A stretch of 64,000 nucleotides of DNA from a virus. Positions within the stretch are counted from its first letter, which is position 1. Every line of letters begins with the position of its first letter. The stretch lies in the IMG/VR virus record IMGVR_UViG_3300034082_001517, positions 4,526 to 68,525 of that record. The stretch is one strand, 5' to 3'. Positions 3,579 through 63,059 of the stretch are shown in pieces. The notes below the pieces were generated by a model. It was not told the origin of the DNA, did no database searches, and saw nothing but the letters and a program-made list of their open reading frames with translations. The position numbers were made by a program, and so were the translations under genes.

Positions 3579-3974
3579 TTAGCGCTCCTTCAATGTCAAT
3601 GAGACATCATAATAAGTACAACCAGTTTTTAAATCTCTTCTAATAACCGATTCGCTATAGGAGTCAACATAGCAGGTGTATTCCGTAAGACCAGCGTTCG
3701 GTTCAAGCTCAACTTGGACAGAAGCCGTTGAAGATGTATTTGCCAAGTTAAACAAAAAAGTCCTGCCAGCTTTACTGTCAACTGATTTATCAACTTTGTC
3801 TGGAAGATACGACCAAGTTATTTGAAATGATCTCTTATTAGTTGTGAAGAATCTTCTTCTATGACCAGATGCAAGATCAACATCATTAGCCGCAATCTCT
3901 TCGGTTATAGACAGCTTTCTTCCATGCTCTGTAATAAATGTTCCATTTATTTTGAATAAAGAATTAGTATTCAT
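3579..3974 (-). CDS. Distal tail (Dit-like) protein
   Basis: 131 aa immediately after tape measure, beta-rich, translationally coupled. Confidence 0.65.
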   Translation of the reverse strand: MNTNSLFKINGTFITEHGRKLSITEEIAANDVDLASGHRRRFFTTNKRSFQITWSYLPDKVDKSVDSKAGRTFLFNLANTSSTASVQVELEPNAGLTEYTCYVDSYSESVIRRDLKTGCTYYDVSLTLKER

Positions 3975-29295: not shown

Positions 29296-29864
29296 GCAAA
29301 CCAAGTCACTAATGAGTATTTAACACCATCGTTTACGGGATGTGCTTGATGGTCGTAAGTAAGCCCTGACGGAAATAAAACAACTGAACCTGGAGTAGCC
29401 TCAATTTCTACTTTATGAAAAGGAAATTCCAGCATTCCGCCGCTAGAAGTGTTTTCTAAAATAGCAACTAAACTAAAAAGTCTATTGAATCCTCTACCAG
29501 CATCAAGGTGCGTTCCGTATCTAGCTCCATTTTCGTATCTTAGCATTTGCATAGGTTCATGATACCCGCTTTTTGCCATAAAATACGCAGAGTAATCTAG
29601 AAAGCAATCTTGCAAAGGTAAATAAATATCATTCCTAAACATGTCATATAAGTGATGTGTCTTGTTTGGATTCATAATCCATTGCAAATCACAACCATCT
29701 GATGTTCTATATTCCGTTGCCTCTCCACCAGATCCAATCAAAGATTTCCTCCAAAAAGTTTCTGCTCCTCGCAAACATTCTTTTTCTAATTCTTGGATAA
29801 AATTCTTACCATCAAGGACATCTTGATAAACAGAAATTCCTATTGACTTTTCTTGCAGTTTCAT
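29292..29864 (-). CDS. 2OG-Fe(II) oxygenase (prolyl-4-hydroxylase-like)
   Basis: HLD...GGMLEF...FPS...HQAHPV..GVKYSLVTW; start at MKLQEK. Confidence 0.9.
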   Translation of the reverse strand: MKLQEKSIGISVYQDVLDGKNFIQELEKECLRGAETFWRKSLIGSGGEATEYRTSDGCDLQWIMNPNKTHHLYDMFRNDIYLPLQDCFLDYSAYFMAKSGYHEPMQMLRYENGARYGTHLDAGRGFNRLFSLVAILENTSSGGMLEFPFHKVEIEATPGSVVLFPSGLTYDHQAHPVNDGVKYSLVTWFA

Positions 29865-30280
29865 TAGATTACCTGAAAAGATCTCTCTATGACGCATTCA
29901 TCTTTTGAATAGATTTTAAAAATATATTCGCCAATCAGCTGTGGTCTATACAAAAAACGAAGGTGGTGCTCTTCGTGAATAATCGGAAAAACTTTGTCTT
30001 GATCAATTGAGTCGCTGCTCATAATACAATAATCGTCCTTGTTGAAGTTAATCCAATCATTTGTGTAGTAAATGCATTGAATAAAATTTACTTTAACCGT
30101 TTTTTCAAAAGAGCAAATATTAATTGTTGGTACAAACAATAATTGCACAATTTCTTCATCAAAAGTTATATCATTCATTGATTTACTTTTGCCAATCGTA
30201 ATTGGCAATTGTGTCTGTAGTGATAAACTTTCTGCTTGTGCCATGTCTCCATTAGCAGGGCAGTAAATAACTCTTTGCAT
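29864..30280 (-). CDS. Hypothetical protein
   Basis: 138-aa coupled ORF. Confidence 0.65.
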   Translation of the reverse strand: MQRVIYCPANGDMAQAESLSLQTQLPITIGKSKSMNDITFDEEIVQLLFVPTINICSFEKTVKVNFIQCIYYTNDWINFNKDDYCIMSSDSIDQDKVFPIIHEEHHLRFLYRPQLIGEYIFKIYSKDECVIERSFQVI

Positions 30281-47906: not shown

Positions 47907-48698
47907 ATGATCTTATTTAGAAATCTAGATATTGGTGATATCCCACCTACCCCATCAAACTTGCTTGAGACTTTTGATACAAAGAAAGCAAGCTCATTGT
48001 TATTGGAATACGCTAAGAGCTTTGGTCATCCAATTGGATATCTGCAAGAACAGCGTGGACAAATTGTTCAAAACATTTTTCCAATCAGAAGGCAGGCTGA
48101 GCATCAGATATCTTCATCGTCTAAAGTAAATTTAGAACTACACACGGAAACAGCATTTCATGCATATATTCCAGATTACTTATTATTGCTATGTTTGCGT
48201 GGTGACAGTAATGCTGGTACAACATATTCCCTACTGTCGGATATTTTAAAAGACATACATGTTGGCATTGTAGAAATATTAAAAAAGAATTTATTTAAAA
48301 CATCCATTGATGATAGTTTTAGATTAAATGGAGAAGATGACTACTTTACAACCGTTCCAGTAATCAGCAGGGACATTAATAATAGATACATTATGAAATA
48401 TGATAGAACAGTTATGACTGGGATAACTACAGAGGCTCAAATGGCTTTAAATGTTTTTACCAAGGCTATTGAACGAAACACGCAGACTGTTTTTTTAAAA
48501 GCTGGAGATTTGCTGGTTTTGGATAACAACATTACTGTTCATGGAAGAACTGCATTTGAAGCAAGATATGATGGGACTGACAGATGGGTGCAAAGGGTTG
48601 TTGTGCGTAAAGAAATTAATTCTATAAAAAACAAAACAACTTGTCCGTCAACTGGGTATACTGTAATTACCAAATATAAGGAGGATGACAGTGAGTGA
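47907..48698 (+). CDS. Clavaminate-synthase-like (TauD family) Fe(II)/2OG dioxygenase
   Basis: QISSSS..LELHTETAF..PDYLLLLCLR, GDLLVLDN...HGR..F...YDGTDRW.QR. Confidence 0.9.
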   Translation: MILFRNLDIGDIPPTPSNLLETFDTKKASSLLLEYAKSFGHPIGYLQEQRGQIVQNIFPIRRQAEHQISSSSKVNLELHTETAFHAYIPDYLLLLCLRGDSNAGTTYSLLSDILKDIHVGIVEILKKNLFKTSIDDSFRLNGEDDYFTTVPVISRDINNRYIMKYDRTVMTGITTEAQMALNVFTKAIERNTQTVFLKAGDLLVLDNNITVHGRTAFEARYDGTDRWVQRVVVRKEINSIKNKTTCPSTGYTVITKYKEDDSE

Positions 48699-49482: not shown

Positions 49483-49564
49483 GCTCTTATGGTGAAATCG
49501 GCAAACACGGAGGGCTTAAAACCCTTGACCGAAAGGTTTCTGGGTTCAAGTCCCAGTGAGAGCA
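49483..49564 (+). tRNA. trnL: tRNA-Leu (anticodon TAA)
   Basis: GCTCTTA/TGAGAGC acceptor, GAGGG-CTTAAAA-CCCTT anticodon arm, long variable arm, GGTTCAAGTCC T-arm; no encoded CCA. Confidence 0.9.
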
Positions 49565-49578
49565 CAAAGGTATAAGCA

Positions 49579-50178
49579 ATGCAAGTTCCAGATAACATGG
49601 TTAAACATGTAGAGAAAATATTTGAAGGTGAATATGATATTGCATATCAAAATTCAAATCCAATAATTTTAGACATTGGCGGGAATATTGGTGGTTTTTC
49701 TTTATGGGCTAATAAGCGTTGGACTAATTCAAAAATATATGCATATGAACCAATTAAAAATAATTTTAATCTATTAAAAGAAAATACAAAAGACATGGAC
49801 AATATTGTAATATCAAATGTTGCAATAGGATCAAAAGAAGAAACTAGAAGAATGTACTACGGAGCCCACAATATTGGTGAATGCAGTTTTGAGCATGGGC
49901 TTGAACAAATTGAAGATGGCGAAGATGTTTCTGTAATGCCAGCAAGTTTACTTCCAAAAGCAGACATTGTAAAAATTGATACAGAAGGCGCTGAAATTGA
50001 AATTTTAGAAAATATGATCATCAAACCCGATTTGTATTTAATTGAATTTCACTCAGCCTATAATAGACGCAGAATAGATAATATCTTGCACGACTATACT
50101 TTGCTATCCGCAGACATCAAGAACCCTAATTATGGTATTGTTAAGTATGCATTGTCTAGCAGTGTAAGGTATGCATAA
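49579..50178 (+). CDS. FkbM family SAM-dependent methyltransferase
   Basis: ILDIGGNIG, AYEP, VKIDTEGAE. Confidence 0.88.
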   Translation: MQVPDNMVKHVEKIFEGEYDIAYQNSNPIILDIGGNIGGFSLWANKRWTNSKIYAYEPIKNNFNLLKENTKDMDNIVISNVAIGSKEETRRMYYGAHNIGECSFEHGLEQIEDGEDVSVMPASLLPKADIVKIDTEGAEIEILENMIIKPDLYLIEFHSAYNRRRIDNILHDYTLLSADIKNPNYGIVKYALSSSVRYA

Positions 50179-50180
50179 AC

Positions 50181-50252
50181 GCCCCTTTAGCTCAGTGGTA
50201 GAGCACCTCACTTGTAATGAGGTGGTCCTCGGTTCAATCCCGAGAGGGGGCT
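50181..50252 (+). tRNA. trnT: tRNA-Thr (anticodon TGT)
   Basis: GCCCCTT/GGGGGC acceptor, TAGCTCAGTGGTAGAGC D-arm, CCTCA-CTTGTAA-TGAGG, GGTTCAATCC. Confidence 0.93.
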
Positions 50253-50265
50253 CTTAGGAGGTATA

Positions 50266-50346
50266 ATGTCAAAACAAGATAAAATTACGCATGCAGTGTA
50301 TTTCACACTTCACGCAATTACAATTGCTATACTGTTAATTAAGTAA
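50266..50346 (+). CDS. 26-aa hydrophobic micropeptide between tRNAs
   Basis: AGGAGG RBS; MSKQDKITHAVYFTLHAITIAILLIK. Confidence 0.5.
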   Translation: MSKQDKITHAVYFTLHAITIAILLIK

Positions 50347-50351
50347 TACTC

Positions 50352-50427
50352 TGGCGAGTAGCTCAGTTGGCAGAGCAACGGACTGTTAATCCGTGGGTCG
50401 TAGGTTCAAACCCTACCTCGCCAGCCA
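50352..50427 (+). tRNA. trnN: tRNA-Asn (anticodon GTT)
   Basis: TGGCGAG/CTCGCCA acceptor, ACGGA-CTGTTAA-TCCGT, GGTTCAAACC, encoded CCA. Confidence 0.93.
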
Positions 50428-50993
50428 TGAAAATTATAGATAACTTTATTTCTGTAGAACAGCAAGATGAGTTGTTGGACTATGTTGGCTCCAATCAATT
50501 TGTTTGGCGTTTACATCCAACGAATATCAACTCTGGTGGTAAGCCGTGGGCTCATGCACCTGTTCAACTTACCCATCATTTATTTATGCATGATGAGAAA
50601 GCCGCTTCCCCACATTTAAAAATCATTCGTCCATTGTTTGATGCAATTGTTCGGGAGTGTGGAGATATTACATTATTTCGGGCTAAGGCTAATTTAACAT
50701 CCCCATGCCCACCGTACAGTTCATACGAGCCCCACACTCCACATGTTGATCTAGGGTATGACGATGGAACAAAGATTGATCATATGGTTTGCGTATATTA
50801 CATTAATGAATCTGATGGTCCAACAATATTTTTTGATAAAGATTGGAATGAAGAAGACATTGTGTATCCTAAAAAGGGTAGGGCTATTATATTTGATGGG
50901 AACACCCTTCATGCGGGTTCCAGTCCTGTACAATATCCATTTAGAATGGTAATGAACATAGACTTTAGACAAGGAGTGGGGCAAATCCCATAA
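50427..50993 (+). CDS. 2OG-Fe(II) oxygenase-like protein
   Basis: MKIIDNF start; PHVD...YYINESDGPT...PKKGR..FDG..LHAG...R; track start (50367) lies inside the tRNA. Confidence 0.82.
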   Translation: MKIIDNFISVEQQDELLDYVGSNQFVWRLHPTNINSGGKPWAHAPVQLTHHLFMHDEKAASPHLKIIRPLFDAIVRECGDITLFRAKANLTSPCPPYSSYEPHTPHVDLGYDDGTKIDHMVCVYYINESDGPTIFFDKDWNEEDIVYPKKGRAIIFDGNTLHAGSSPVQYPFRMVMNIDFRQGVGQIP

Positions 50994-51000
50994 AAACAAT

Positions 51001-51660
51001 ATGCCAGAGTTAAATGCTTCTATTCCCCCAATTGAATGTTATGTCCGTGGTAACTTTTTGCGTAATCAATTAGATAGCCATGACTTGAAGTTTCCTTGTG
51101 TTATTTTTGGAGTTGCTTCCATTCCCGACAGAGCGCCCGTATTTCATTTTCTAATGGAAGATGGCGGTGTTTGGTGGAGAGCCCCTATAAATGCTTTCTG
51201 CGCCTCTCTAGACAGTCCTGAAGTGGATCTACATGACCTTGTGATGTGGAATAGCTTTTCATCGCATATCACCGTTACCACCTTCCAACATATGAAGGGT
51301 ATGGCAATGACTTATATTGATCGTCATGCCAATAAGGTAAATGGCAAGTATCTATTCACTTTGGATTGGCATTCTCCCGACATTAACACTTTGGATGCAG
51401 GTTATTCGGTTAACCCAGGTCAGCACAAGTGCGGGCATGTGATTCAAAGGGCTGATGGTAACTTTGCTATCCAGCCAAACAATCGGGTGAGATTATGGGA
51501 TCCTTCATATACAACCAAGAAAGATAAACCTCTTATTGAAAGGTTGATTAATCAAAAGATTTGGGATGTTGAAGATGGGGAGAAATGGCTTACATCGGAT
51601 GATGACCGATATGATTATGATGTAGTGGCGCAAAAAGATACTAACAAGGATTTGAGGTAG
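51001..51660 (+). CDS. Conserved phage hypothetical protein
   Basis: PELNASIP...YLFTLDW...HKCGH...GNFAIQPNNR motif family. Confidence 0.75.
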   Translation: MPELNASIPPIECYVRGNFLRNQLDSHDLKFPCVIFGVASIPDRAPVFHFLMEDGGVWWRAPINAFCASLDSPEVDLHDLVMWNSFSSHITVTTFQHMKGMAMTYIDRHANKVNGKYLFTLDWHSPDINTLDAGYSVNPGQHKCGHVIQRADGNFAIQPNNRVRLWDPSYTTKKDKPLIERLINQKIWDVEDGEKWLTSDDDRYDYDVVAQKDTNKDLR

Positions 51661-51794: not shown

Positions 51795-52196
51795 TTACTT
51801 CTTGTTGCGCTTGGCAAGGAGGGCATCAAAGTCTTTGATTTTGGTTTCGCCCATGTATCCCCATGCGTAGCCTTCTTCAATGAGTTGTTCGTTCAAGGAT
51901 TTGGCGGCTCCATCCAAATATACCCAGCCCAAGATACGCCCGTACTTTTCGGTGCTATCGGGGAGCTCTGTTTTTATAACAACTGTTTTGGCGGAATCTA
52001 TCGCCTTTTTGATTTTATCTTTCACTTCAAGCCCCAGAGCCTTCTCTCGCAGGTCTTTGGTGCGTGACTCGGGAGTATCTATTCCAGCCAGTCGGACTCG
52101 TTGTGCGTAAGAGATGTTAAAGCCTAAATCAATATCAACATCAATTGTGTCACCATCTACTACCTTGGTTACTTTCTTAATGTTATACTCGTACAT
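51795..52196 (-). CDS. Thermonuclease (SNase-like) family protein
   Basis: VVDGDT, VRLAGIDTPE, EKYGRILG, LIEEGYA. Confidence 0.92.
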   Translation of the reverse strand: MYEYNIKKVTKVVDGDTIDVDIDLGFNISYAQRVRLAGIDTPESRTKDLREKALGLEVKDKIKKAIDSAKTVVIKTELPDSTEKYGRILGWVYLDGAAKSLNEQLIEEGYAWGYMGETKIKDFDALLAKRNKK

Positions 52197-52250
52197 CTTT
52201 ATATTATATCACAGGTGGCGAAAAATGATTGTAGTAACAAGTTTGTGGCA

Positions 52251-52496
52251 TTAAGGTTCAATGAAGATGCATTCGCCAGGACATTCCTCGGCGGCTTCAA
52301 TCACATCTTCCAACCGATCATCGGCAAAAGATGCTAAACCAGCTGCGCCTTCGGGGTTTCCCACAGAGGAGGCAAAAATTTTGTCTCCTTCTCGTACATA
52401 TGCTAAACCATCGGGCATCATCGTAAACACATCGGGAGCTATCTCTGCGCACAATCCATCTCCAGTGCATAAGTCTTGATCAATCCAAACTCTCAT
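52251..52496 (-). CDS. Ferredoxin (actinobacterial single-cluster type)
   Basis: CTGDGLCAEIAPDVF...EECPGECI (CxxDxxC...CP). Confidence 0.92.
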   Translation of the reverse strand: MRVWIDQDLCTGDGLCAEIAPDVFTMMPDGLAYVREGDKIFASSVGNPEGAAGLASFADDRLEDVIEAAEECPGECIFIEP

Positions 52497-52532
52497 ATAG
52501 GAAGTATACCATTTTTACGCTATACTGTATAA

Positions 52533-52721
52533 ATGCCACAGTACAACTATCGCTGCCCTAATGGGCATACCTACGAAGAAGTAAGATCTATTCTGGAAGA
52601 TCAGAAAACAAAAGATTGTCCCGAATGCGGAGCTGTGCTCAAACAATCGTATTCCCCGCCTGGAATTCAATTCAACGGGCATGGCTTCTACCGCAACACC
52701 CGAAGCAATTCTAAGAAATAA
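52533..52721 (+). CDS. FmdB-like zinc ribbon protein
   Basis: MPQYNYRCPNGH...CPECG...IQFNGHGFY. Confidence 0.85.
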   Translation: MPQYNYRCPNGHTYEEVRSILEDQKTKDCPECGAVLKQSYSPPGIQFNGHGFYRNTRSNSKK

Positions 52722-52799
52722 TAATACACCCATACATTATTATTATGAGACAAATAATTCTCTCTCTATACTAGGAGAGGCAGCGAAAGCTAACCTTAG

Positions 52800-52868
52800 G
52801 ACCGTTATAGGTGCAGATGCCTCTGGACTAATCACCCAGGGGCATGTGCATGTTTAGCGGTCTTTTTT
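52800..52868 (+). terminator. Long hairpin + U-tract (terminator or 3' end of a small RNA)
   Basis: gaccgtta..tgca.atgcctctgg / ccaggggcat.tgca..tagcggtc then tttttt. Confidence 0.65.
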
Positions 52869-53151
52869 ATTCCCCCAAACTTTCTATCTAGTACATTACC
52901 CGCACCGAACCATCCCATCCCAAATTTTAGTACATATTTTATGAGTGTTACTTTACTTTTTTTTGCCATATGAGAATCCTGTGTCGTGTAGGGTCAATAC
53001 ATGACGGTGGTTCAACGATGCGCTTAGCTCAAGTTGAACAACCGATTGTTGGGGTTGGTGATGTATTTATATTGAATACACATTTGCGCTCATCCTGTAA
53101 GGTTATGGATGTCGGCAAGGTGCCCAGCCACAGCGACAGAAAGGGACTGCC

Positions 53152-53400
53152 GTGTCAACGACAGCCTGCAAGTCATTCGCAATCACGGTTGCGAGAGCGT
53201 TAGAGAGTGCCAAGTCCTACGAGACTGGTGAGACAGACAATCTTTACACAAACTTCCGTGTGAGCGAGAACTTTGACATCCTTTCAATCCGTTCCCTTGC
53301 CAATGAGGCACAGGGCTTGTTGGATGAACTGAGCAACCTTGTTGAAGGTTGCAAGGCTCAAGCCTGCACGATTGAACAGATGGCAAAGGACTTGATGTAA
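53152..53400 (+). CDS. Cassette 1 ORF a, hypothetical
   Basis: GTG after GAAAGGGA, 82 aa. Confidence 0.7.
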   Translation: MSTTACKSFAITVARALESAKSYETGETDNLYTNFRVSENFDILSIRSLANEAQGLLDELSNLVEGCKAQACTIEQMAKDLM

Positions 53401-53446
53401 GACCCGTCAGGGCTTTATTCCTACAACACATGAAAGGGGGTGAATA

Positions 53447-53536
53447 ATGGATATCAACATTGACCCGCTTACGGCAATGATGGTCATGGTGATCTGGGGC
53501 GCAGTCACCATGATCAGGGAGTACCTACGCAAGTAA
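53447..53536 (+). CDS. Cassette 1 ORF b, 29-aa membrane peptide
   Basis: AAAGGGGG RBS; MDINIDPLTAMMVMVIWGAVTMIREYLRK. Confidence 0.55.
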   Translation: MDINIDPLTAMMVMVIWGAVTMIREYLRK

Positions 53537-53795
53537 GCAGAGAGGGGAGGGGCTTCGGCTCCTCCCCTTTTTTTATGCCCGAACACCAAAGACCCAGGGC
53601 AGGCAGGACACAGTTGTTGAGTATGCGCTCACTACACGCTCACAATGTTTGGTGGGCGACAGTGCGCCTAGCTCAAGTTGCACTCCAATCATCAGGGTAT
53701 GCGGTCATATTCATATTGAATACACATTCCTTCTCATTATGTAAGGTAATGGATGTCGGTAAGAGTGCCAAGTCACAACGACAAGGAGCAAGGTA

Positions 53796-54089
53796 ATGGA
53801 TGAATACGGATTAGTCCTAATGCTTATGGCATTTGGAATACTGTGTTGTCTGTCGGGGTATGCGTTTGGATACGCCGAGCGAGACAATGCGATTGAATCA
53901 GCCCGTGATCGTGCTTACGATGAATGGCTTGAGACCAAGTACACTCCCTATGAGATTGCTACAGGTGCCGCAGATGATGAGGCATATACAGACTGGAGCG
54001 GTTGGACTGGTCTTGGTTACAAGCGTTCTCGTGAGGAACTGGATCAAATGTGGAAAGACCTTGAGACCTCAACGGAAAGGGGTAAATAA
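53796..54089 (+). CDS. Cassette 2 ORF, N-terminally anchored membrane protein
   Basis: AGGAG RBS, TM segment at N-terminus. Confidence 0.75.
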   Translation: MDEYGLVLMLMAFGILCCLSGYAFGYAERDNAIESARDRAYDEWLETKYTPYEIATGAADDEAYTDWSGWTGLGYKRSREELDQMWKDLETSTERGK

Positions 54090-54376
54090 CGAATAACTAA
54101 ACCCAACCAGCGAGCGTGTGGTGTGTCCCCTCCGACACATCACACGCTCACTTTTTTTTGCCCCGAACACCATGCACACAGCACAGGTAGGTCTCAGAGT
54201 TTAACATACACTCAGCCTACACATGCTGTGCTTGGTGGACTACGGTGCGCTTAGCTCAAGTTGTACTCCAATGATAAGGTGATGCGGGTAGATTTACATT
54301 GAATACATATTCTTACTTACTCTGTAAGGTAGTAGATGTCGGAACAAACCTAACCCCGATAGAGAGGATAACCATT

Positions 54377-54643
54377 ATGGAATTTTCCCTAATACTTGGT
54401 TCCTTCTACGCTTACACTAATGGTCATATGTATGAGATTTACTCTACATACGCTGATGACGGTGTGTGCGTGTATGTAGCGTGGTGCTATACAACAACCT
54501 CAGACCGTGTGGTTGAGGGTACAGTAGAGCGTTACGAGACAGACAGCCTGCGTTCAGCGAAAGCGTGGTGCAGGAAGTACGACAGGAAGCGCCAGGCTCA
54601 CTTGCTGGAGAAACAGCAGGACAGGTATCGTATCTACAACTGA
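54377..54643 (+). CDS. Cassette 3 ORF, hypothetical (88 aa)
   Basis: ATG after GAGAGGA; SLRSAKAWC motif. Confidence 0.7.
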   Translation: MEFSLILGSFYAYTNGHMYEIYSTYADDGVCVYVAWCYTTTSDRVVEGTVERYETDSLRSAKAWCRKYDRKRQAHLLEKQQDRYRIYN

Positions 54644-54906
54644 TACGAACAATCAAACCCTCACCTTCGGGTGGGGGTTTTTTTGTTGCCCGAACACCCA
54701 ACACACAGCACACATAGGTCTCAGAGTTTTAATATGCACTCAACGCACACATGCTGTGGGGTGGTGGGCAACGGTGCGCCTAGCTCAAGTTGCACTCCAG
54801 CGATCAGGGGATGCACACGATTTCATATTGAATACATATTCTCTCACACTCTGTAAGGTATTGAGTGTCGGTAAGAGTGCCAAGTCACAACGACAAGGGG
54901 AATACA

Positions 54907-55203
54907 ATGAAACAGCAAAGCAAGGCGCAAGCACGGGCTAAGCAAAGCCGTGAGCAGGTACAAGCCAACAAGCGTATCAAGGCTGTCAATGCCGATATGC
55001 GCAATGGCGATACCGTAATGACACTGGGCGAGCAATTGGCAATGCTCACCGATAAGTACGAGCAGGCATTGAGCAAGAACGGAAGCAATCACCCATCAAC
55101 ACAAGGGCTCTTGTTCCTTGTTCGTTCCTACTCAAGCACTATCCAGAACCAGACAACGGATAAAGCCAAAGCCGAAGCCAAAGCAAACACAATCGCTCAA
55201 TAG
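54907..55203 (+). CDS. Cassette 4 ORF, basic helical protein (98 aa)
   Basis: ATG after AAGGGG. Confidence 0.7.
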   Translation: MKQQSKAQARAKQSREQVQANKRIKAVNADMRNGDTVMTLGEQLAMLTDKYEQALSKNGSNHPSTQGLLFLVRSYSSTIQNQTTDKAKAEAKANTIAQ

Positions 55204-55480
55204 CGACTATCCACCCCCAATAATACAAATCAACCCCTTGCCTTCGGGCAGGGGGTTTTTTTGTGCCCCGAACACCACCATCTCAGGACGCATAGATCTC
55301 AGGGTTTAATATGCACTCAACGCACACAAGATACGGTGGTGGGCAACGGTGCGCATAGCTCAAGTTGCACTCCAGCGATAAGGATATGATGATGCTTTTA
55401 TATTGAATACATATTCTCACTCACTTGGTAAGGTGTTATCTGTCGGCAAGGTGCCAAGTCACAGCGATAAGGGGTAAGCA

Positions 55481-55714
55481 ATGAGAACAGTAATTAGCAT
55501 TCCCACCGAGCAATGCCCACTCTGTAGCAAGATGGGTGAGATCACTATGGATCTCGGAGTGTGGGAGATCGGCGTAGTCAAGCGTGCGCAAGGGGAATAT
55601 ATCCAAGATGCATTCCCCGCACTCTCGGCAGGGGAGCGTGAACAACTTATGACAGGCATTCATTCAGAGTGCTGGGATAAGGAATTTGCAGGCACCGAAG
55701 AGGAAGGCGAATAA
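55481..55714 (+). CDS. Cassette 5 ORF a, zinc-binding actinophage-type protein
   Basis: CPLC...IQDAFP.LS..EREQLMTGIHSECWD. Confidence 0.75.
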   Translation: MRTVISIPTEQCPLCSKMGEITMDLGVWEIGVVKRAQGEYIQDAFPALSAGEREQLMTGIHSECWDKEFAGTEEEGE

Positions 55715-55959
55715 TGTCGCTTAGCCAAGAGGTGCTGTACGAGATCCTGCACGCCGTAGCCTCGCTACGCATTCCTAAAGTAGACGGGGTAATCCTTGAC
55801 GCTCTCAAGGTGCCTGATGAGATACTGAAGGAAGGCGGTGTAAGGTGCAGGTATTACAAGCGCATGGTGGAGCGTGATATACATAATCACCCCGCCATCA
55901 AGCCAGTATCTGTCCATTGGACAGCGCACGGTGATTGCTTTCTACGGAAAGCAGTTTGA
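55714..55959 (+). CDS. Cassette 5 ORF b, hypothetical
   Basis: TAATG coupling, 81 aa. Confidence 0.7.
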   Translation: MSLSQEVLYEILHAVASLRIPKVDGVILDALKVPDEILKEGGVRCRYYKRMVERDIHNHPAIKPVSVHWTAHGDCFLRKAV

Positions 55960-56219
55960 AAAATTCCCTCCCGAGCCGAAAGGCTTGGGGGGGTTTTTTT
56001 TGCCCGTACTCCGACCAGACAGCACGCAACAGTAAACCATATTGAATACATGCTCACTACACATGCTATGAGGGTGGTGGGCAACGGTGCGCATAGCTCA
56101 AGTTGCACTCCAGCAATAAGGATAATATGATATAAACATATTGAATACATATTCTCGCTCATATTGTAAGGTATTGAGTGTCGGTACAGCGCCAAGTCGC
56201 AACGACAAGGGAGAAGCAA

Positions 56220-56486
56220 ATGCGTAAAGTAAAGGCAGGTTCAGTCAATGTAATCAAGCGTGGTCGTGCTAAGCGTCACGATCAGTATCTAATTGACTGT
56301 GTGAACGCTGTAACCAATGCGACAGATGTAATGGTCACAGAGTGTCGTATCCCTAATACCGTTGTAGATAAAGGGCGTATTCGTGCCCGTATCGCAAGGG
56401 CGCAAGGGTCAACCAAACTAAGTATCCAATTCCACTTGGATAAAGGCAAACTTATCCCCGTGCTAAGCAAGAAGCGCACTAAGTAA
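56220..56486 (+). CDS. Cassette 6 ORF, divergent KRGR-family protein (88 aa)
   Basis: MRKVKAGSVNVIKRGR...; ATG after AAGGGAG. Confidence 0.75.
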   Translation: MRKVKAGSVNVIKRGRAKRHDQYLIDCVNAVTNATDVMVTECRIPNTVVDKGRIRARIARAQGSTKLSIQFHLDKGKLIPVLSKKRTK

Positions 56487-56790
56487 CCAAGTCGCTTCCC
56501 CAAGCAGTCCCCTCAAGCCGAAAGGCTTGGGGGGATTTTTTTTTGCCCGAACACCGACCACACAGCACACAGCGATGCCCAATGTTGAATACACGCTCAC
56601 CATACATGCTATGAGGGTGGTGGGCAACGGTGCGCCTAGCTCAAGTTGCACTCCAGCAGTAAGGGGATGATGACATATTTATATTGAATACATATTCTCT
56701 TTACATATGTAATGTAATGAGTGTTGGTGAGCGCCTAATTGCTCACATTCCGTGAGCGATGGCTAAAAACTCATCGCAAGGGAAAAGCCA

Positions 56791-57099
56791 ATGAGTAAGA
56801 AAATAAATCTAAGCCAAGTCACAAACTTGGTCAAGCGTGGCAGACAAGCCATTATTGACCTCGCTCTAGTTGCCGATATCCAGGCGCTAGACCCAGCGAT
56901 TGAGGGTGACGCATTCATCTACGAGGACGCACAAGGCGACACCAGCGATGAGGATTTTCCAAATTGGAAAAACACTTGGCGAGGTCGTGTCGCAAAAGCA
57001 GGCGAGGCTTGCGACCGTGAATGCTCCATTCTGTGGACTACAGAGGGAGAGATGGTGGTATCACTCAAGCCTGTCAAGGGCAAGCGCAAGCGCAAGTAG
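56791..57099 (+). CDS. Cassette 7 ORF, KRGR-family paralog 1
   Basis: NLVKRGRQA...KNTWRGRVAKA...SLKPVKGKRKRK. Confidence 0.85.
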   Translation: MSKKINLSQVTNLVKRGRQAIIDLALVADIQALDPAIEGDAFIYEDAQGDTSDEDFPNWKNTWRGRVAKAGEACDRECSILWTTEGEMVVSLKPVKGKRKRK

Positions 57100-57419
57100 T
57101 GAGACCATAGTGAGGTAAAGAGTTACCTTGCCAAACTAACCCCATAAGCCTTATGGCTTGTGGGGTTTTTTTGGGTGGTGTTCTCGCTGGCTAGTCGCCC
57201 AGAGAACACCACCTTGCAGAGAGTCCCTATGCTCACAAATTTAATACACATTTCCTATCCCGACACATGGCGGTTGGGCAACGGTGCGATTAGCTCAAGT
57301 TGCACTACCGCCGTAAGGGAAGTATAGGGACTTTATATTGAATACAAATTCTGATGACATAGGTATAGTTATTGATGTCGGTATAAACGCCAAGTCGTAT
57401 CCGATAAAGGATAACTACA

Positions 57420-57722
57420 ATGAAAGTCAATCTAAACGAATTGACCAATTTGGTCAAGCGTGGCAGGCAGGCAATCCTTGATATGAATCTTGTTGCAGAG
57501 ATTCAGACCATTGATCCAGCAATCATTGGTGATGCAATCATCTATGATCTTGCACAAGGTGATCCAAGTGATGAAGACTTTGCCAATCACAAGAACACTT
57601 GGCGTGGGCGTGTTGCCCGCAGTGCCGAGTATCTCGGCGTTGATTGCTCGGTCAATTGGACAACCGAAGGCGAGATGATCGTCTCGCTCAAGCCCGTCAA
57701 GGCTAAGCGCAACCGCAAGTAG
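57420..57722 (+). CDS. Cassette 8 ORF, KRGR-family paralog 2
   Basis: Clearly homologous to 56791-57099. Confidence 0.85.
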   Translation: MKVNLNELTNLVKRGRQAILDMNLVAEIQTIDPAIIGDAIIYDLAQGDPSDEDFANHKNTWRGRVARSAEYLGVDCSVNWTTEGEMIVSLKPVKAKRNRK

Positions 57723-58032
57723 TTAGTGCCCCGCAAGCCCAATGAATACAAGAGCCCCGTGAGCCTTAGTGCTCACGGGGCTTTCTTGGCGGTTGTTCTC
57801 GCTGGCTATACGCCCAGAGAACAACCGCCGCTTAGAGTCACACCTGATCTCATGTTTAGTACACAATTCCCAATCACAATACACGGCTGTGGTTCAACGG
57901 TGCGCCTAGCTCAAGTTGAACAACAGCCAATTGGGAAATAGAGGAGAAATATATTGAATACATATTCTCACTTACTTGTTACTATGTATTTGTGGGTAAC
58001 AATGCCAAGTCATATCCCATAAAGGAAATACA

Positions 58033-58341
58033 ATGACCCTTAAAGTCAATTTGAGCGAAATCACCAATTTGGTGAAGCGTGGCAGGCAGGCTGTCATAGA
58101 TCAGGCGTTACTTGCCGACATTATGTCATTAGACGCTAATGTTGCTGGCGATGCCTTTATTTATGCCGATGCCCAAGGCGACCCAACAGACGATGAATTT
58201 GTTAATCACAAAAATTCATGGCGTGGGCGTGTTGCCAAGGCTGGCGAAGCGTGTGACCGTGACTGCTCCATTTTGTGGACTACAGCAGGCGAAATGGTCG
58301 TATCGCTCAAGCCAGTAAAGGCGAAGCGCAACCGTAAGTAA
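58033..58341 (+). CDS. Cassette 9 ORF, KRGR-family paralog 3
   Basis: Approx. 75% identical to 56791-57099 by manual count (26 differences in 102 aa). Confidence 0.85.
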   Translation: MTLKVNLSEITNLVKRGRQAVIDQALLADIMSLDANVAGDAFIYADAQGDPTDDEFVNHKNSWRGRVAKAGEACDRDCSILWTTAGEMVVSLKPVKAKRNRK

Positions 58342-59222
58342 TTCCCCCGTTAGGTAATAGAGACAAACCCCATATGCCATAAGGCGTATGGGGTTTTTCT
58401 TTACGGGTGTTCTCGCTGGCTATTCGCCCAGAGAACACCCGTTTTGTCTATGCCAATGCGATTAGATATTTAATACAAATTCTCAATCTCTATTCATGTA
58501 AATGGCGGGTGGTCCAAATAGAAATGTATTTGTATTTGTACACCCGCCAAAATTTATATGTTTATATCTGCGTTTTTAATAATGTTACTAATCATACACA
58601 TGTTTATACCTATACAATCAGAAATGTATTTACAATTAACAATGAGGAGGTCGGGGTTATCATAGGGGCTGGGATAGCGGATGCGATTCTCTATATCTGT
58701 CGGGGCAAATTACAACTGTGTAATCAATGCGTATATCAGTATGTATACAGAACCATTTAACCCCCGATAAATCTGTACTAAAATCGCTGGAGATTAGCGG
58801 CTGTAAAAAGACCTATTAAAAGGGGGTTGATTAGTTATATCTATGTATCTATCCTCCTAGTAAGGACTGATATAGGTTATTTCGTATAGCGAATCATAGG
58901 GGGTCTCTAATTATGAGCTTTTTTGCCCCGTTTTGTTCAATTGTTGACCAATTTAGTCGTATATTATTATATTTATGCCTATTTTTATTTATTTATTACC
59001 CTAATTTTAGGCAAAAAAAAGCCCAAGAATAGCTATGTTTAGGGCTATTCCTGGACTCTTATTCTGTGATATATCAGCTAAATATTAATATCGTACACCA
59101 CATATATTGATAATATATGAACGATATTGGAACGCTTTACTTACTAATGCTAATAGTTTTCAGCTATTTCCTTCTAATAATCTTTCAGCTATTTCTCTCT
59201 ATAATTATTTCAATCTATATTT

Positions 59223-59546
59223 TTATCTATTAAACATATCTATTATCTGGGCATTCAATTCTTCCTGTGTATCTGCCAATGGGTTTGTTCCAGAGTCAAA
59301 CATACTCTTTACTACTTCATATGAATACTTATCTTGATTACTAGGATGACTTAATACTCCTTCAACCCGATTTTTTATGAAACGAAGAAATTCATTAACA
59401 ATATCATTGGCTGTAATCTTATCTTCCATCTCCAGATCAGAGTTACTAATCAACTCTTTCAGCCACCTACCACCAAAGATTAGGTTAAAAACTTCTTCTG
59501 GATTCAAATCATTATATTCATCATTGCTCATATTTATCCTTACCAT
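59223..59546 (-). CDS. Hypothetical protein
   Basis: Acidic ORF, probable start at MSNDEY after AAGGA. Confidence 0.6.
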   Translation of the reverse strand: MVRINMSNDEYNDLNPEEVFNLIFGGRWLKELISNSDLEMEDKITANDIVNEFLRFIKNRVEGVLSHPSNQDKYSYEVVKSMFDSGTNPLADTQEELNAQIIDMFNR

Positions 59547-59654
59547 TAATATAGGGTTGTATTGGGATAATTGTTTTGCTTAATTCTTCTCTAAGCTTAT
59601 CAAAATTGTATTCATACATCATCTCTTCATCCGATATACATTCGCCATAATATA

Positions 59655-59876
59655 TCATCCTACCAACCTTTCTAATTTTATTTTGCAATCCAAATAAGCC
59701 AAAGTTCTATTATGTGCTTGGATATTTAAAATGGTTAACAAAGATACATTCTCTTCATTAGACTTATCAGTTTCGTCTATCCTTTTCTCAATGACTTGAA
59801 TTTCTCTTTCAAGACGAAGAATGTCTTGTTCAATTTCATCCTTCACAGTCATGTCCATAAGCAGCCTCCTCTTCAT
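59655..59876 (-). CDS. Hypothetical coiled-coil protein
   Basis: ORF track; probable start slightly downstream. Confidence 0.55.
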   Translation of the reverse strand: MKRRLLMDMTVKDEIEQDILRLEREIQVIEKRIDETDKSNEENVSLLTILNIQAHNRTLAYLDCKIKLERLVG

Positions 59877-60000
59877 TTAACATTTTGTCACATTCATAAC
59901 AGATATCATAAAAGAATTCACCAGTTTCTGGATCTTGCATTACTCTTACAGCATCTAATTTTACTGGAATCATCCTATCCTTATTATCTTCGTATTTCAT
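59836..60000 (-). CDS. Possible small Zn-binding protein (54 aa)
   Basis: MKYEDNKD...CYEC...GHDCEG; ATGA overlap with upstream stop. Confidence 0.5.
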   Translation of the reverse strand: MKYEDNKDRMIPVKLDAVRVMQDPETGEFFYDICYECDKMLNEEEAAYGHDCEG

Positions 60001-60266
60001 AATGTTGGGCTCCAATCATTTGTTTCGTGTCCATGTCCATATGTAGTATTTACAAAATCTTCATATAAATCCCTTTTATACTCCGCAATCAATAACCTAA
60101 GGTTATTTAAAATGCCATTGATACTGTCATAATCAGGGTGAGAAGTAACCATATATCCCATAACAGAATGCTGTAAATCCTCAATAAATCCCTTAATTAA
60201 AACAATACCACTTTCCATTTGTTCTAAAGTAAGATCCATATATTCTCCATGTTTATCAATAGCCAT
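59997..60266 (-). CDS. Hypothetical protein
   Basis: 89 aa, AAAGGGA RBS. Confidence 0.65.
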   Translation of the reverse strand: MAIDKHGEYMDLTLEQMESGIVLIKGFIEDLQHSVMGYMVTSHPDYDSINGILNNLRLLIAEYKRDLYEDFVNTTYGHGHETNDWSPTL

Positions 60267-60269
60267 AAC

Positions 60270-60401
60270 TTAATCCCTTTCCCAATGCCGATGAATATGT
60301 CTTTTATTTTCTCCAGGGTAATCATATTTATCTACACTTCTCTTGGTATGCCAATGAAGTCCAATGTATAACCCTAGGAACAATGCTAATACCATTCTCA
60401 T
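60270..60401 (-). CDS. Possible small membrane protein (43 aa)
   Basis: MRMVLALFLGLYIGLHW...; ATGA overlap. Confidence 0.45.
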   Translation of the reverse strand: MRMVLALFLGLYIGLHWHTKRSVDKYDYPGENKRHIHRHWERD

Positions 60402-60721
60402 ATATCCCTCCCTTCTGCTTTTGAATAGTTTTCTCTTTCAATAATAAAGAAGAACCCTCTTGAAACAATTAGCTTTTGATGCAACACACAGCAATGATCT
60501 TTGTTATACTGACTCTTAACCGTATTGCAGCCAATAAAACAACAAATCCCTGTATGAATTTTGGTATGATCAAAACCTATTTCAATTAAGCACTTCTCCG
60601 TTCTTCTATTTCTAGCTTGAGTTCTTTCTCCTTTAACTCTCCCTTTATAATCTGGGTTTAATTTCTTCATTTCTTGTTTTCTTTGATGCGCTCTCTTATG
60701 TCTATCTGTATAAGTTGACAT
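60398..60721 (-). CDS. Basic Cys/His protein (putative Zn finger)
   Basis: CCFIGC...CCVLH. Confidence 0.6.
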   Translation of the reverse strand: MSTYTDRHKRAHQRKQEMKKLNPDYKGRVKGERTQARNRRTEKCLIEIGFDHTKIHTGICCFIGCNTVKSQYNKDHCCVLHQKLIVSRGFFFIIERENYSKAEGRDI

Positions 60722-60749
60722 ACCCCAATCCTTTCAAATAGGTTACTTA

Positions 60750-61376
60750 TTAGTCTACTAAGGCTTCTTTCTTAATATAGAAAGGCTCTTTATTGTGATC
60801 GCACAAACCAATTTCTTCATTTAATATTCTGGTCAATACATTTACTGCAGAAAGATAATCAATAGAAGTGAAATCAACACACAAATCACCACTATCCCAC
60901 TCTTCTCCGTATTCAGTTGCTTCATCTATTGTTTCATAATCACCTTCAAGTTTAAATTCATACCTATCTGGTTCATTAACCATCAACCATTTCCAAATAC
61001 ATGAATCAGCATTGTAATAAATGTTTCTTCCTTCGTCATAAGAAAAGCCTAAGAAATCATTTGACTCTGTTTCAAACTGACGAACAAAGTCAATAGTATC
61101 GTCACCTGCTAACCATTCAGGAGCTTTCCAGTTATTAACTATTGCTGTAGCAAACCCAGCAATACAACCCATAGATGTACAATTGAAAATATCAGTACCC
61201 ACAATCATATTCTTTACTTGATCTGCCCTATATGTACTTGCTAATTCACCATGTTCAAATACATTTTCAACTTTATACTCTTCGTCAAATTTACCAATGA
61301 ATGTGCTCATGTTAAATTTTGTCGCACCATCAATCTTAATGGCATCAATTACTCTTTGTAAGTTTTCCTTATTCAT
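60750..61376 (-). CDS. Hypothetical protein, paralog of 62430-63059
   Basis: FNMS.F...FNCTSMGCIAGFATA. Confidence 0.8.
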   Translation of the reverse strand: MNKENLQRVIDAIKIDGATKFNMSTFIGKFDEEYKVENVFEHGELASTYRADQVKNMIVGTDIFNCTSMGCIAGFATAIVNNWKAPEWLAGDDTIDFVRQFETESNDFLGFSYDEGRNIYYNADSCIWKWLMVNEPDRYEFKLEGDYETIDEATEYGEEWDSGDLCVDFTSIDYLSAVNVLTRILNEEIGLCDHNKEPFYIKKEALVD

Positions 61377-61377
61377 G

Positions 61378-61950
61378 TTATTTCCCTGCCTTTTCTTGTT
61401 TATTGTTTGGATAGTCTCTATTATACGAATCTGAAATCTTATATGCTTTAATCAGATCTTCAACAACAATATCAGTACTGTCTTTATCTAATCTAAAAGA
61501 ATCGTCTAAAGGACAGATTAATTTATAATCAGTTACAGCAAATACCTTTTGCCAATCTTTAGGTTCATTGGCATCATGAATTCTTTGTGCAAAAGAAAGC
61601 ATAGCCATACTCTTATCTGTTTTATTCCAATTAGGAGTTGATTCATTAACAGCGTCTAATACTTCATCATCAACTGCTGTTTTACCCTCTATATCTGGAT
61701 CATAAAGATTATCCAAAATAAGCCAACCAATGGCACATTTTGTGTCTGTCTTAGTTTTTACATCCATACCACGATAAGCACAATCATCATCATTTATGAC
61801 AATATCATCGCCTGTATCTTCGTCATATTCATACGCAAGTAACCTTGATTTCATATTCTGTTTTATAAGGTTTTTTGCAATATGACGCAAAGCTTGTCCG
61901 TCATTAGTTATTTCAGATAAATCTTTCTTTAATTGTTCTAGTGTTTCCAT
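61378..61950 (-). CDS. Hypothetical protein (CAYR...KCAIG...Q.IHD family)
   Basis: Motif family frequent in large phages. Confidence 0.75.
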   Translation of the reverse strand: METLEQLKKDLSEITNDGQALRHIAKNLIKQNMKSRLLAYEYDEDTGDDIVINDDDCAYRGMDVKTKTDTKCAIGWLILDNLYDPDIEGKTAVDDEVLDAVNESTPNWNKTDKSMAMLSFAQRIHDANEPKDWQKVFAVTDYKLICPLDDSFRLDKDSTDIVVEDLIKAYKISDSYNRDYPNNKQEKAGK

Positions 61951-62239: not shown

Positions 62240-62433
62240 TATTTATTCTCCTTTAGGTGGTCTTGATATTCTAGATGTATCCATCTCCAATACTTATCCA
62301 ATTCTCCTTCGCTAGCTTCAGAAAAATCTGGACCATTAGATACTTTATATTGGAAATTTAAAAGAATATCGGCGTAATCATCATCACAACCGAGTGCATC
62401 TTTAACCATTCCCCTCCAATATGGATTACTCAT
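62239..62433 (-). CDS. Hypothetical protein
   Basis: 64 aa, PDFSE motif, coupled. Confidence 0.65.
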   Translation of the reverse strand: MSNPYWRGMVKDALGCDDDYADILLNFQYKVSNGPDFSEASEGELDKYWRWIHLEYQDHLKENK

Positions 62434-63059
62434 GACACTACCGCTTCTTTCTTGATATAATAAGGTTGTTGCATTTCATCACAAGCCAAACCAATTTCTT
62501 CATTAAAGATTCTAGTTAAAACATCCACTGCAGTAAGATAATCAATGGTATGAAAGTTTGCGTATAGATCTCTATCATCCCATTCAATCTCACAATCATT
62601 TGCGTCTTGCATTGTTTCATAATCTTCCAATTCTAGATTTGGATATCTTTCTGCTTCATGATGCATTAGCCATTTCCAAATACTATTATCATCTCCGAAG
62701 AAAAGATTCTTAGCCTCAGCAGTACTTAATCCTAAGTAATTAGCAGCTTCATTTTCAAATTGATATAGATGACCTGAAGGATCATCTTTTCTCATCCAGT
62801 CAGGAGTTTTCCAATCATTAGCCAATGCTGTAGCAAAACCAGCAATACAACCCATTGAGGTACAATTAAACAAATCAGTACCTTCATGTATAACCCTAAC
62901 TCTACTTACAGGGAATGTATGAGCTAATTCATCATTTTCAAATACGCTTATATGATCATCTTCATATTCAAGCTTTCCGACAAATACACTCATATTAAAT
63001 TTCTTTGCACCATCAAATTTAATGGCATCAATTACTTTCCGCATATTATCTTTGTTCAT
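62430..63059 (-). CDS. Hypothetical protein, paralog of 60750-61376
   Basis: Same length and motifs, AAGGAG RBS. Confidence 0.8.
   Translation of the reverse strand: MNKDNMRKVIDAIKFDGAKKFNMSVFVGKLEYEDDHISVFENDELAHTFPVSRVRVIHEGTDLFNCTSMGCIAGFATALANDWKTPDWMRKDDPSGHLYQFENEAANYLGLSTAEAKNLFFGDDNSIWKWLMHHEAERYPNLELEDYETMQDANDCEIEWDDRDLYANFHTIDYLTAVDVLTRIFNEEIGLACDEMQQPYYIKKEAVVS

Follow-up and report, generated by a model that had tools for sequence, protein, structure and literature searches.

A covarying, strand-biased hairpin at a fixed distance from the promoters of shuffled gene cassettes in uncultured phages

Promoter-early stem-loops (PeSLs) of T4-type phages are described as repeated modules of a terminator and a promoter that flank small ORFans in a variable region (PMC2839356; PMC4122927). 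The early hairpin promoters of phage N4 have stems of 5-7 bp with loops of 3 nt, are situated between about -17 and -5, and form on the template strand, where they are read by an injected virion RNA polymerase with host SSB (PMC4496689). The ESAS of Cluster K mycobacteriophages are presented as imperfect inverted repeats upstream of a 13-bp motif at the translation start (PMC3203893). The subject of this report is hairpin A, an element of about 45 nt that recurs in an array of small gene cassettes within 64,000 nucleotides of virus DNA, namely bases 4526-68525 of the IMG/VR record IMGVR_UViG_3300034082_001517 (68,525 bp, classed as linear and about 51% complete); this whole stretch is called the window below. 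PeSLs are the described system closest to it in behavior. The literature searched, with the supplementary PeSL figures lying outside that search, contains no description of hairpin A that we could find.

Hairpin A is recognized by a 16-nt core, GGTGCGCNTAGCTCAA, which is matched nine times in the window at up to two mismatches (six exact copies and three with one mismatch), always on the plus strand, with starts at 53017, 53661, 54244, 54773, 55348, 56086, 56629, 57283 and 57899. These repeats are confined to 53005-57928, the span given in the initial annotation of this DNA. Shuffled sequence yields a mean of 0.09 matches and none of 100 shuffles reaches nine, while a search of the full record at up to three substitutions recovers the same nine copies and none besides. 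The arm sequences given in that annotation are correct as written. The nine copies are listed here together with, for some of them, the RNA folding z score and with their matches to a covariance model built from the four-lineage alignment described below.

53005..53044, plus strand: hairpin A copy u1, with 12-nt arms and its core at 53017-53032; RNA z -3.93; covariance model 46.5 bits.
53649..53688, plus strand: copy u2, matching the core and the covariance model; RNA z -0.59.
54232..54271, plus strand: copy u3, with three mismatches and another fold at minimum energy; matches the core and the covariance model.
54761..54800, plus strand: copy u4, matching the core and the covariance model.
55336..55375, plus strand: copy u5, the best covariance model match (63.2 bits).
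56074..56113, plus strand: copy u6, matching the core and the covariance model.
56617..56656, plus strand: copy u7, matching the core and the covariance model.
57269..57312, plus strand: copy u8, with 14-nt arms; RNA z -3.69; matches the covariance model.
57885..57928, plus strand: copy u9, with 14-nt arms; RNA z -4.12; matches the covariance model.

The initial annotation had missed three inverted copies and a terminal variant.

57173..57214, minus strand: inverted hairpin-A-type copy directly 3' of the gene 7 terminator, with a perfect stem and the plus-strand apex TANNC; covariance model match on the minus strand (21.4 bits, E 0.0011).
57787..57830, minus strand: inverted copy after the gene 8 terminator; no model match at E <=0.05; fold energies on the two strands -30.0 and -30.3 kcal/mol.
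58403..58442, minus strand: inverted copy after the gene 9 terminator; no model match at E <=0.05.
58504..58548, plus strand: terminal hairpin with hairpin-A-like outer arms and an A+T-rich top; 20.8 bits, E 0.0098.

All three inverted copies have perfect stems, are equally foldable on both strands and carry an apex that is the complement of the direct copies' apex; relatives of this phage carry inverted copies at the same places. The terminal hairpin closes the array with no cassette promoter behind it, and the same array-end element occurs in three of the related lineages introduced below (L096, L032 and L050). An Rfam E-value search of 52700-59200 returned 16 weak matches, all under the gathering score and none over the nine hairpins. 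Two other identities were tried and rejected: ARAGORN finds only three tRNAs, at 49483-50427, with no tRNA-like element in the array, and a 9-nt DnaA box consensus has 75 matches in the window against 80 expected, none of them at a fixed module position.

In hairpin A, a lower stem of 12-14 bp, interrupted by fixed mismatches, leads through a small internal loop to an apical stem of 4 bp that carries a loop of 5 nt. A conserved G.A mismatch had been proposed, and there is indeed one in every copy, but it occupies two different stem positions (position 8 in u1 and u9, position 6 in u2-u8) and is accompanied in the seven copies u2-u8 by a T.T at position 8; stem position 8 is unpaired in all 28 distinct copies from the window and close relatives. 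Similarly, the near-invariant core is repeated nine times as claimed, but its supposed loop in fact holds an apical mini-hairpin, which covaries in relatives and whose stem in the window contains a T.T. As isolated RNAs, the copies are clearly stable only in the case of u1, u8 and u9 (z -3.9, -3.7 and -4.1); for u2-u7 z lies between -0.2 and -1.5, and u3 takes up a different structure at minimum energy. Folding with DNA parameters predicts the same structure, with z from -0.5 to -5.0 in 16 copies, and energies therefore cannot separate RNA from single-stranded DNA.

Covariation of the arms, which the initial annotation had put forward, is borne out in two alignments. In the window and close metagenome relatives, 67 copies reduce to 28 distinct 48-mers, in which 75.3% of cells are paired as compared to 27-62% when the partner is slid. 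Both sides have changed at 6 of the 14 pairs, and the covariation score is reached by none of 500 shuffles, a figure that is not a probability since the copies are kin. A larger alignment (A3), made with MAFFT from 31 promoter-anchored copies of four lineages and not fitted to any structure, pairs in 79.6% of cells (30-45% with the partner slid) and has both-side changes at 13 of 18 pairs and 54 double-change cells; again none of 500 shuffles reaches the observed values. Complementarity is kept through sequence change at 9 of the 14 lower-stem pairs, and the apical stem covaries too. A further alignment (A4), which was fitted to the model and includes both strands of the palindrome, is left out of these counts. 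Since both stems covary, hairpin A is a folded single strand and not merely a duplex motif. Conservation is uneven along it, being higher in the right arm and core than in the left arm and extending over the apex and inner stem but not over the foot, which varies. Different modules of one phage have different arms.

The two strands do not contribute equally to this fold. Among the inner 12 pairs of the alignment, G.T or T.G occupies 27 cells as opposed to 4 cells with A.C or C.A. The plus-strand RNA fold is the more stable one in 28 of the 31 copies of A3 and in 19 of 21 copies from four further lineages, giving 47 of 52 promoter-proximal copies in total, and copies from relatives reach a plus-strand z of -2 or lower in 17 of 22 cases. 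A cruciform folds both strands and would tolerate both kinds of transition equally. Thus, of the extruded hairpin or cruciform suggested in the initial annotation, the folded single strand holds and the symmetric cruciform is disfavored: the selected fold is that of the gene-sense (non-template) strand.

Hairpin A lies within a module of constant order, comprising an intrinsic terminator, an upstream copy of the promoter box, hairpin A, a 24-nt linker, the box ATTGAATACA.ATTC, 20 nt and the hexamer TAnnnT. The hexamer is followed by a leader hairpin and then by a ribosome-binding site with its gene of 77-102 codons; Pfam and PHROG assign no function to any of the cassette genes. Ten modules were aligned (alignment A1), and every copy of hairpin A sits 3' of an intrinsic terminator and 5' of a promoter of box and TAnnnT, in agreement with the earlier description. 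A hexamer of the form T-A-any-any-any-T, in which the interior may vary freely, is characteristic of a -10 element. The parts of the modules are as follows.

53072..53103, plus strand: cassette promoter 1, with box TTGAATACA..., 20-nt spacer and TAAGGT.
53716..53747, plus strand: cassette promoter 2, box and TAAGGT.
54299..54330, plus strand: cassette promoter 3, box and TAAGGT.
54828..54859, plus strand: cassette promoter 4, box and TAAGGT.
55403..55434, plus strand: cassette promoter 5, box and TAAGGT.
56141..56172, plus strand: cassette promoter 6, box and TAAGGT.
56684..56715, plus strand: cassette promoter 7, box and TAATGT.
57338..57369, plus strand: cassette promoter 8, box and TATAGT.
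57954..57985, plus strand: cassette promoter 9, box and TACTAT.
56042..56055, plus strand: upstream box copy (box1), 44 nt before the u6 core and without TAnnnT.
56585, 57240 and 58469: other upstream box copies, with weaker ones at 53617, 54200, 54728, 55305 and 57855.
54655..54680, plus strand: intrinsic terminator, as an example; one ends each cassette.
54112-54149, 55232-55257, 55966-55993, 56506-56537, 57138-57167 and 58365-58396: other intrinsic terminators.

The geometry of the module is fixed on its promoter side. In all 52 distinct modules the core begins 54 nt before the box and the box is separated from TAnnnT by 20 nt; the 24-nt linker is merely 55% identical, with an invariant GG at a fixed position. 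The hexamer itself is TAAGGT in 28 modules, TATAGT in 11, TAATGT in 10 and TACTAT in 3. All nine exact or one-mismatch copies of the promoter box (box2) in the window are inside the array, with matches elsewhere at chance level, and the hairpin precedes every array promoter of the window (9/9) and of lineages L096 (7/7), L031 (7/7) and L032 (8/8), so that the link to this class of promoter is exclusive. Even the first promoter is preceded by a hairpin (u1), though it has no cassette upstream. Terminator-like sites number 19 as compared to 5.2 expected, and a strong terminator stands upstream of the hairpin in every module, with no TAnnnT following the upstream box. The small RNA that had been offered as an alternative does not survive as a free-standing gene, the hairpin having neither a promoter nor a terminator of its own. 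A generic sigma-70 scan, tried and set aside, gives 13 sites against 11.7 expected and misses the cassette promoters on account of their 20-nt spacer.

Several other features were observed within these modules. The promoter box (53072-57967) is partly palindromic (GAATA..TATTC), with a second copy about 98 nt upstream that lacks a -10 element, and may be an operator. Read by eye, a leader hairpin begins about 6 nt after each TAnnnT (for instance, 54866-54896 and 56179-56208), at the predicted 5' end of the mRNA; it has an outer stem TGTCGG.../...CGACA, a conserved CCAAGT loop and an inner 3-bp stem that covaries (GTG/CAC, GCG/CGC, ACG/CGT, ATG/CAT). A leader mini-open reading frame in the linker, with an in-frame ATG and a stop inside the box, is present in most modules of the window's clade; it was rejected as a general feature, occurring in 0/7 modules of L096 and 0/8 of L032. 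In the first cassette, a 29-codon open reading frame with its own ribosome-binding site was seen by eye after gene 1 (window 53448-53537, plus strand).

The same arrangement extends to other phages. A pattern scan of metagenome contigs gave 17 stretches, 11 of them with 2-9 copies, which are strains of the same phage. Among viral contigs the exact pattern had no match and a looser one gave four single matches, probably by chance; a genome collection yielded one single match. More distant relatives were reached through an anchor gene (51001-51660) with 598 relatives in IMG/VR, of which the best 80 were kept. Homologous arrays are present in at least eight phage lineages and lie 1-7 kb downstream of the anchor gene: in L096, L031 and L032, and in a more diverged form also in L033, L030, L054/L057 and L050. 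The covariance model built from A3 finds matches only inside the arrays in 1.115 Mb of related phage DNA. In these relatives, what had been called a 16-nt loop is an apical mini-hairpin with a 4-bp stem, of several complementary forms in L096, L031 and L032, and a 5-nt loop ending in TA; in L032, L033, L050 and L054 there is a GC-closed 4-nt loop. The apex motif, GC-GNNTA-GC or GC-TTNA-GC, is constant within lineages while the stems vary, which is what one would predict if a reader co-evolved with it. Across the eight lineages, linkers, boxes and cassette genes are no longer recognizably alike; structure, position and apex motif persist.

The distance from the apex to the start of the -10 element is 71-77 nt across the eight lineages, outlying rows aside. 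It is 74 nt in the window, 76 nt in L096 and L031, 74-77 nt in L032, 71-72 nt in L030, 71.5 nt in L054 and 72-73 nt in L050 (9 of 10 copies, the other at 69.5); in L033, two of four copies are at 74.5 nt, one is at 71.5 and one has no called -10 element. For a few rows of the window and L031 the script chose another fold, which gives other apex distances; in the window, seven copies have the apex 74 nt before the -10 element, and u3 and u6, for which another fold was picked, have the same spacing from core to -10. The box sequence differs between lineages, and the gap from box to hexamer is 20-21 nt nearly throughout (the exceptions are two rows at 17 nt and one without a hexamer). By comparison, the distance from terminator to hairpin varies from about 10 nt (L033, L030 and L050) up to some 70 nt in the window, and some lineages lack the upstream box, which is optional. 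Because its spacing to the promoter is fixed and that to the terminator is variable, because the box is found only in the array and because a hairpin stands at the first promoter, hairpin A belongs to the promoter and not to the preceding terminator. The initial annotation had tied the hairpin to the promoter, and the constant spacing in 52/52 modules and the 71-77 nt in eight lineages agree with it.

Only one cassette family is common to the lineages, always as the last two or three cassettes. In the window it is represented by three paralogues.

56791-57099, 57420-57719 and 58033-58341, plus strand: genes g7-g9, encoding proteins of 100-102 aa with basic ends.

Considered as a reader of the hairpin, the g7-g9 protein gave nothing below E 0.3 with a sequence profile against the PDB and nothing at E <=0.001 with Foldseek; its confidently predicted structure (pLDDT 82) has a best VIA Z of 5.8, which is within noise, and neither a fold nor a family match was obtained.

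The cassettes are shuffled. A relative contig, Ga0209596_1001915 (L010 plus L016), has 11 copies of hairpin A compared to 9 in the window, and a form without 55220-56516 is present in one DNA run and one RNA-library run. When 1326 pairs of modules were compared, 42 had a point inside the module at which similarity clearly switches; this point falls just after the terminator in 10, at the 5' foot of the hairpin in 8, in the right arm or linker in 8 and in the promoter, leader or gene start in 16. This scatter over several blocks rules against a single crossover site. This behavior matches what is described for the PeSLs of T4-type phages (PMC2839356; PMC4122927).

We tentatively favor, while stopping short of calling it probable, a reading of hairpin A as a strand-specific, structure-dependent upstream element of the cassette promoter, set within PeSL-like terminator/promoter modules that also shuffle ORFan cassettes. 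Hairpin A would constitute the upstream half of a composite cassette promoter and act in cis at the DNA level: the folded gene-sense strand, centered about 85 bp upstream of the start site, would dock a putative factor that sets or insulates promoter activity, and the same conserved blocks would provide the homology for the gain, loss and reordering of cassettes. The data establish the fold with its covariation, strand bias, fixed geometry and exclusive tie to one promoter class, and the shuffling of cassettes; an action as DNA rather than RNA, a binding factor and an effect on transcription are what we infer. A DNA role is favored because nothing else accounts for the unvarying distance to the -10 element, for a hairpin standing at the first promoter and for the absence of any promoter that would transcribe the hairpin. 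More specifically, a host-type promoter class in widespread freshwater phages may be controlled by a hairpin extruded on the non-template strand some 85 bp upstream, where a phage or host protein would read it; this proposition is considerably more doubtful. Several considerations weigh against a DNA-level promoter element. Much energy is needed to extrude an imperfect 12-bp stem and its 16-nt top out of duplex DNA, and in the window only three of the nine copies are more stable than shuffled sequence. The start site is placed from the -10 element only, and the apex-to-(-10) distance varies by up to 6 bp between lineages, which is more than half a helical turn. The strand bias is what a sense-strand RNA would show, and a DNA mechanism must explain the preference for one strand. 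Finally, a contig from an RNA library (X23 record 15) spans 56629-58446 unbroken, including two whole intergenic modules; carried-over DNA is a possible source, and the contig is a weak hint that the hairpins can be transcribed.

These last points lead to the main rival reading, somewhat unlikely in our estimate, that hairpin A works as a sense-strand RNA hairpin in read-through or antiterminated transcripts, serving as an RNase III-type processing site, a stabilizer or an RNA-binding loading site, and so would uncouple the mRNA of each cassette from the preceding one. An RNA would most simply explain the strand bias, with the plus strand more stable in 28/31 and 19/21 copies and changes compatible with G.U tolerated where A.C is not (27 versus 4); both stems covary, and a total helix of about 20 bp with internal mismatches resembles the substrates of double-strand RNases. 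The RNA-library contig over two modules is in keeping with such transcripts, but the public-run data consist of contigs only, from four runs, which give no strand, ends or level, and the library may contain DNA. Moreover, every module places the hairpin between a strong terminator and the promoter, and no TAnnnT promoter precedes it. The constant distance to box and -10 element in eight lineages with a free linker would go unexplained, as would the hairpin at the first promoter, and the fold energies do not discriminate, the DNA-parameter fold being identical. Contig ends were tried as transcript ends and rejected: they are assembly breaks and not RNA ends because they fall at the repeated core (55347, 56086 and 56629). 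X23 has no cover at 59351-61486, which is uninformative. A duplex-DNA operator, with a dimer on the two arms or a single protein on the right arm and core and with hairpin formation irrelevant, is improbable. It would fit the better conservation of the right arm and core, the invariant GG at a fixed linker position and a placement near -85 that is usual for upstream activators, but the arms change and yet stay complementary at 9/14 lower-stem pairs, the apical stem covaries and the asymmetry between G.T and A.C is meaningless for duplex DNA. The arms also differ between modules of one phage, and therefore one dimer could not read them all.

The arrangement of the array invites a different explanation, in which hairpin A is a recombination signal for cassette mobility, either as a folded strand read by a recombinase or nuclease from the unseen half of the genome or as a preferred crossover point. 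Cassettes are bracketed by hairpins (as many as there are promoters, plus one), including the terminal hairpin without a promoter; copies are found in either orientation; strains vary in the number and order of their cassettes (11 versus 9 copies, and the form without 55220-56516); and 8 of the 42 clear switches lie at the hairpin's 5' foot. The single-strand bias and fixed unpaired bases also recall attC sites. Nonetheless, we consider such a signal unlikely: the switch points are spread 10/8/8/16 over the blocks, which fits ordinary homologous recombination, the 51%-complete record has no match to an integrase or Y1 transposase, and the conserved sequence is at the apex and not at the foot, where attC sites are cut. 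A recombination signal would also leave the fixed distance to the -10 element without reason. At the other extreme, hairpin A could have no function of its own, being a palindrome inherited with a duplicated module and kept alike by gene conversion. All copies are indeed paralogues in a tandem array and six of those in the window are thermodynamically unremarkable, but structure, position and apex motif persist in eight lineages despite diverged linkers, boxes and cassette genes, which makes this very improbable.

Small ORFan cassettes at the starts of phage genomes are the usual place of host-takeover and anti-defense genes, and their expression and exchange have been detailed in only a few model phages. 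A structured, strand-specific element locked to promoters in at least eight lineages of uncultured lake phages points to a control step that is missing from current promoter models. If it acts at the DNA level, hairpin-dependent transcription would extend beyond N4 to a second and mechanistically different case, and a supercoiling-sensitive timer or insulator for rapidly shuffled accessory cassettes becomes possible; if it acts at the RNA level, it would be a new phage RNA motif absent from Rfam. Either way, the motif is a practical marker for variable islands in metagenomes.

The record encodes a portal, an HK97-type capsid, a prohead protease, a protein of 4214 aa with matches to tape-measure families, and a ribonucleotide reductase. 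On the strength of the tape-measure, portal and HK97-type capsid matches, the phage is assigned to the long-tailed, siphovirus type. Its portal comes closest to those of Streptomyces phages, with some 44% identity, and a DNA search of a phage collection gave no near relative of the record. Further genes include a tryptophan halogenase, several 2OG-Fe(II) oxygenases and three tRNAs. The island is richer in G+C than the remaining genome (33-45%): the cassette array (52001-58000) has 46-49%, as against 35-45% in the structural genes and 33% in the block of converging minus-strand genes at 59-64 kb.

3974-16618, minus strand: tape-measure-type open reading frame of 4214 aa, with matches to tape-measure families only.

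These matches ruled out an N4-like virion polymerase as the identity of the 4214-aa protein. An exceptionally long tail would be expected from a tape measure of this size if length scales as in other siphoviruses. A load of tailoring enzymes unusual for a phage was also observed (window 27820-29304, 29292-29897, 47907-48698 and 50367-50993), consisting of the tryptophan halogenase (E 3.9e-103), a pair of genes of the 2OG-Fe(II) oxygenase type (one scores just below the Pfam cut-off) and a TauD-family dioxygenase. Just upstream of the array, at 52799-52866 on the plus strand, a 26-bp hairpin (about -42 kcal/mol) is followed by a T-run and is kept almost base for base in L032, differing in the loop only; it has no Rfam match, and either a small RNA or a very strong terminator is possible. 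The space from the array's end to the converging minus-strand genes is taken up by an A+T-rich non-coding stretch (58550-59100) that carries the region's best generic sigma-70-like matches, and a terminus, an origin or a genome end is possible there. Two genes of 208-209 aa on the minus strand (60750-61376 and 62430-63059), neither with a Pfam match, look like paralogues by eye.

The initial annotation had likened hairpin A to N4 hairpin promoters, attC sites and REP elements, none of which proves to fit; its suggestion of staged DNA injection receives no support from the present data. The likeness to REPs and BIMEs lies in imperfect intergenic palindromes of about 40 nt, sometimes in opposed pairs, as in u8-u10, where an inverted and a direct copy are about 100 nt apart. 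However, REPs are dispersed genome-wide, usually within transcripts before the terminator, and linked to RAYTs, whereas hairpin A is locked to promoters behind terminators and confined to the arrays, both in the window and in the 1.115 Mb of relatives. A Y1 (HUH) transposase (PF01797) has no match in the partial (51%) record. Like attC sites, the copies of hairpin A are imperfect palindromes that bracket cassettes, with selection for one strand's fold and fixed unpaired bases. In attC, however, the conserved boxes are at the foot of the stem and the top is variable, while hairpin A has a conserved apex and inner stem and a variable foot; and attC follows promoterless open reading frames beside an integron integrase, whereas each cassette here has its own promoter and terminator. 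The record, 51% complete, has no match to a tyrosine integrase (PF00589) and none to WhiB. Resemblances to Chi motifs, to arginine-repressor boxes (for the promoter box) and to mycobacteriophage stoperators are leads only.

Compared with the N4 hairpins, hairpin A is about 45 nt long, with a lower stem of 12-14 bp, a 4-bp apical stem and a loop of 4-5 nt; it lies about 74 nt before a host-type -10 element and is favored on the non-template strand (47/52 copies). A T7-like polymerase (PF00940) has no match in the 51%-complete record, in a search that gave none in the control genomes either. Were hairpin A to act at the DNA level, it would share with the described N4 system the need of phage early transcription for one strand's extruded hairpin with a sequence-specific loop. 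The ESAS, compared by their description, are similar in being imperfect inverted repeats of one orientation, with a short spacer, that precede some genes of the non-structural half of actinophage genomes, and in having a lineage-specific consensus; they too are an unexplained actinophage repeat. They differ from hairpin A in position, the latter being upstream of a promoter and about 130 nt before the start codon.

Taken together, PeSLs offer the nearest parallel. In both cases, modules of a host-type promoter and a terminator flank ORFans, and here relatives differ by insertion, deletion or replacement of cassettes, with crossovers within the modules. PeSLs belong to T4-type myoviruses and their hyperplastic regions between blocks of core genes, and are associated with mini-circles, while the present array is in a siphovirus-type phage and has a promoter spacer of 20-21 nt. 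The stem-loop of a PeSL is, as described, the terminator itself; in the arrays reported here the intrinsic terminator is separate, and hairpin A is an extra component that covaries, is strand-biased and is fixed to the -10 element.

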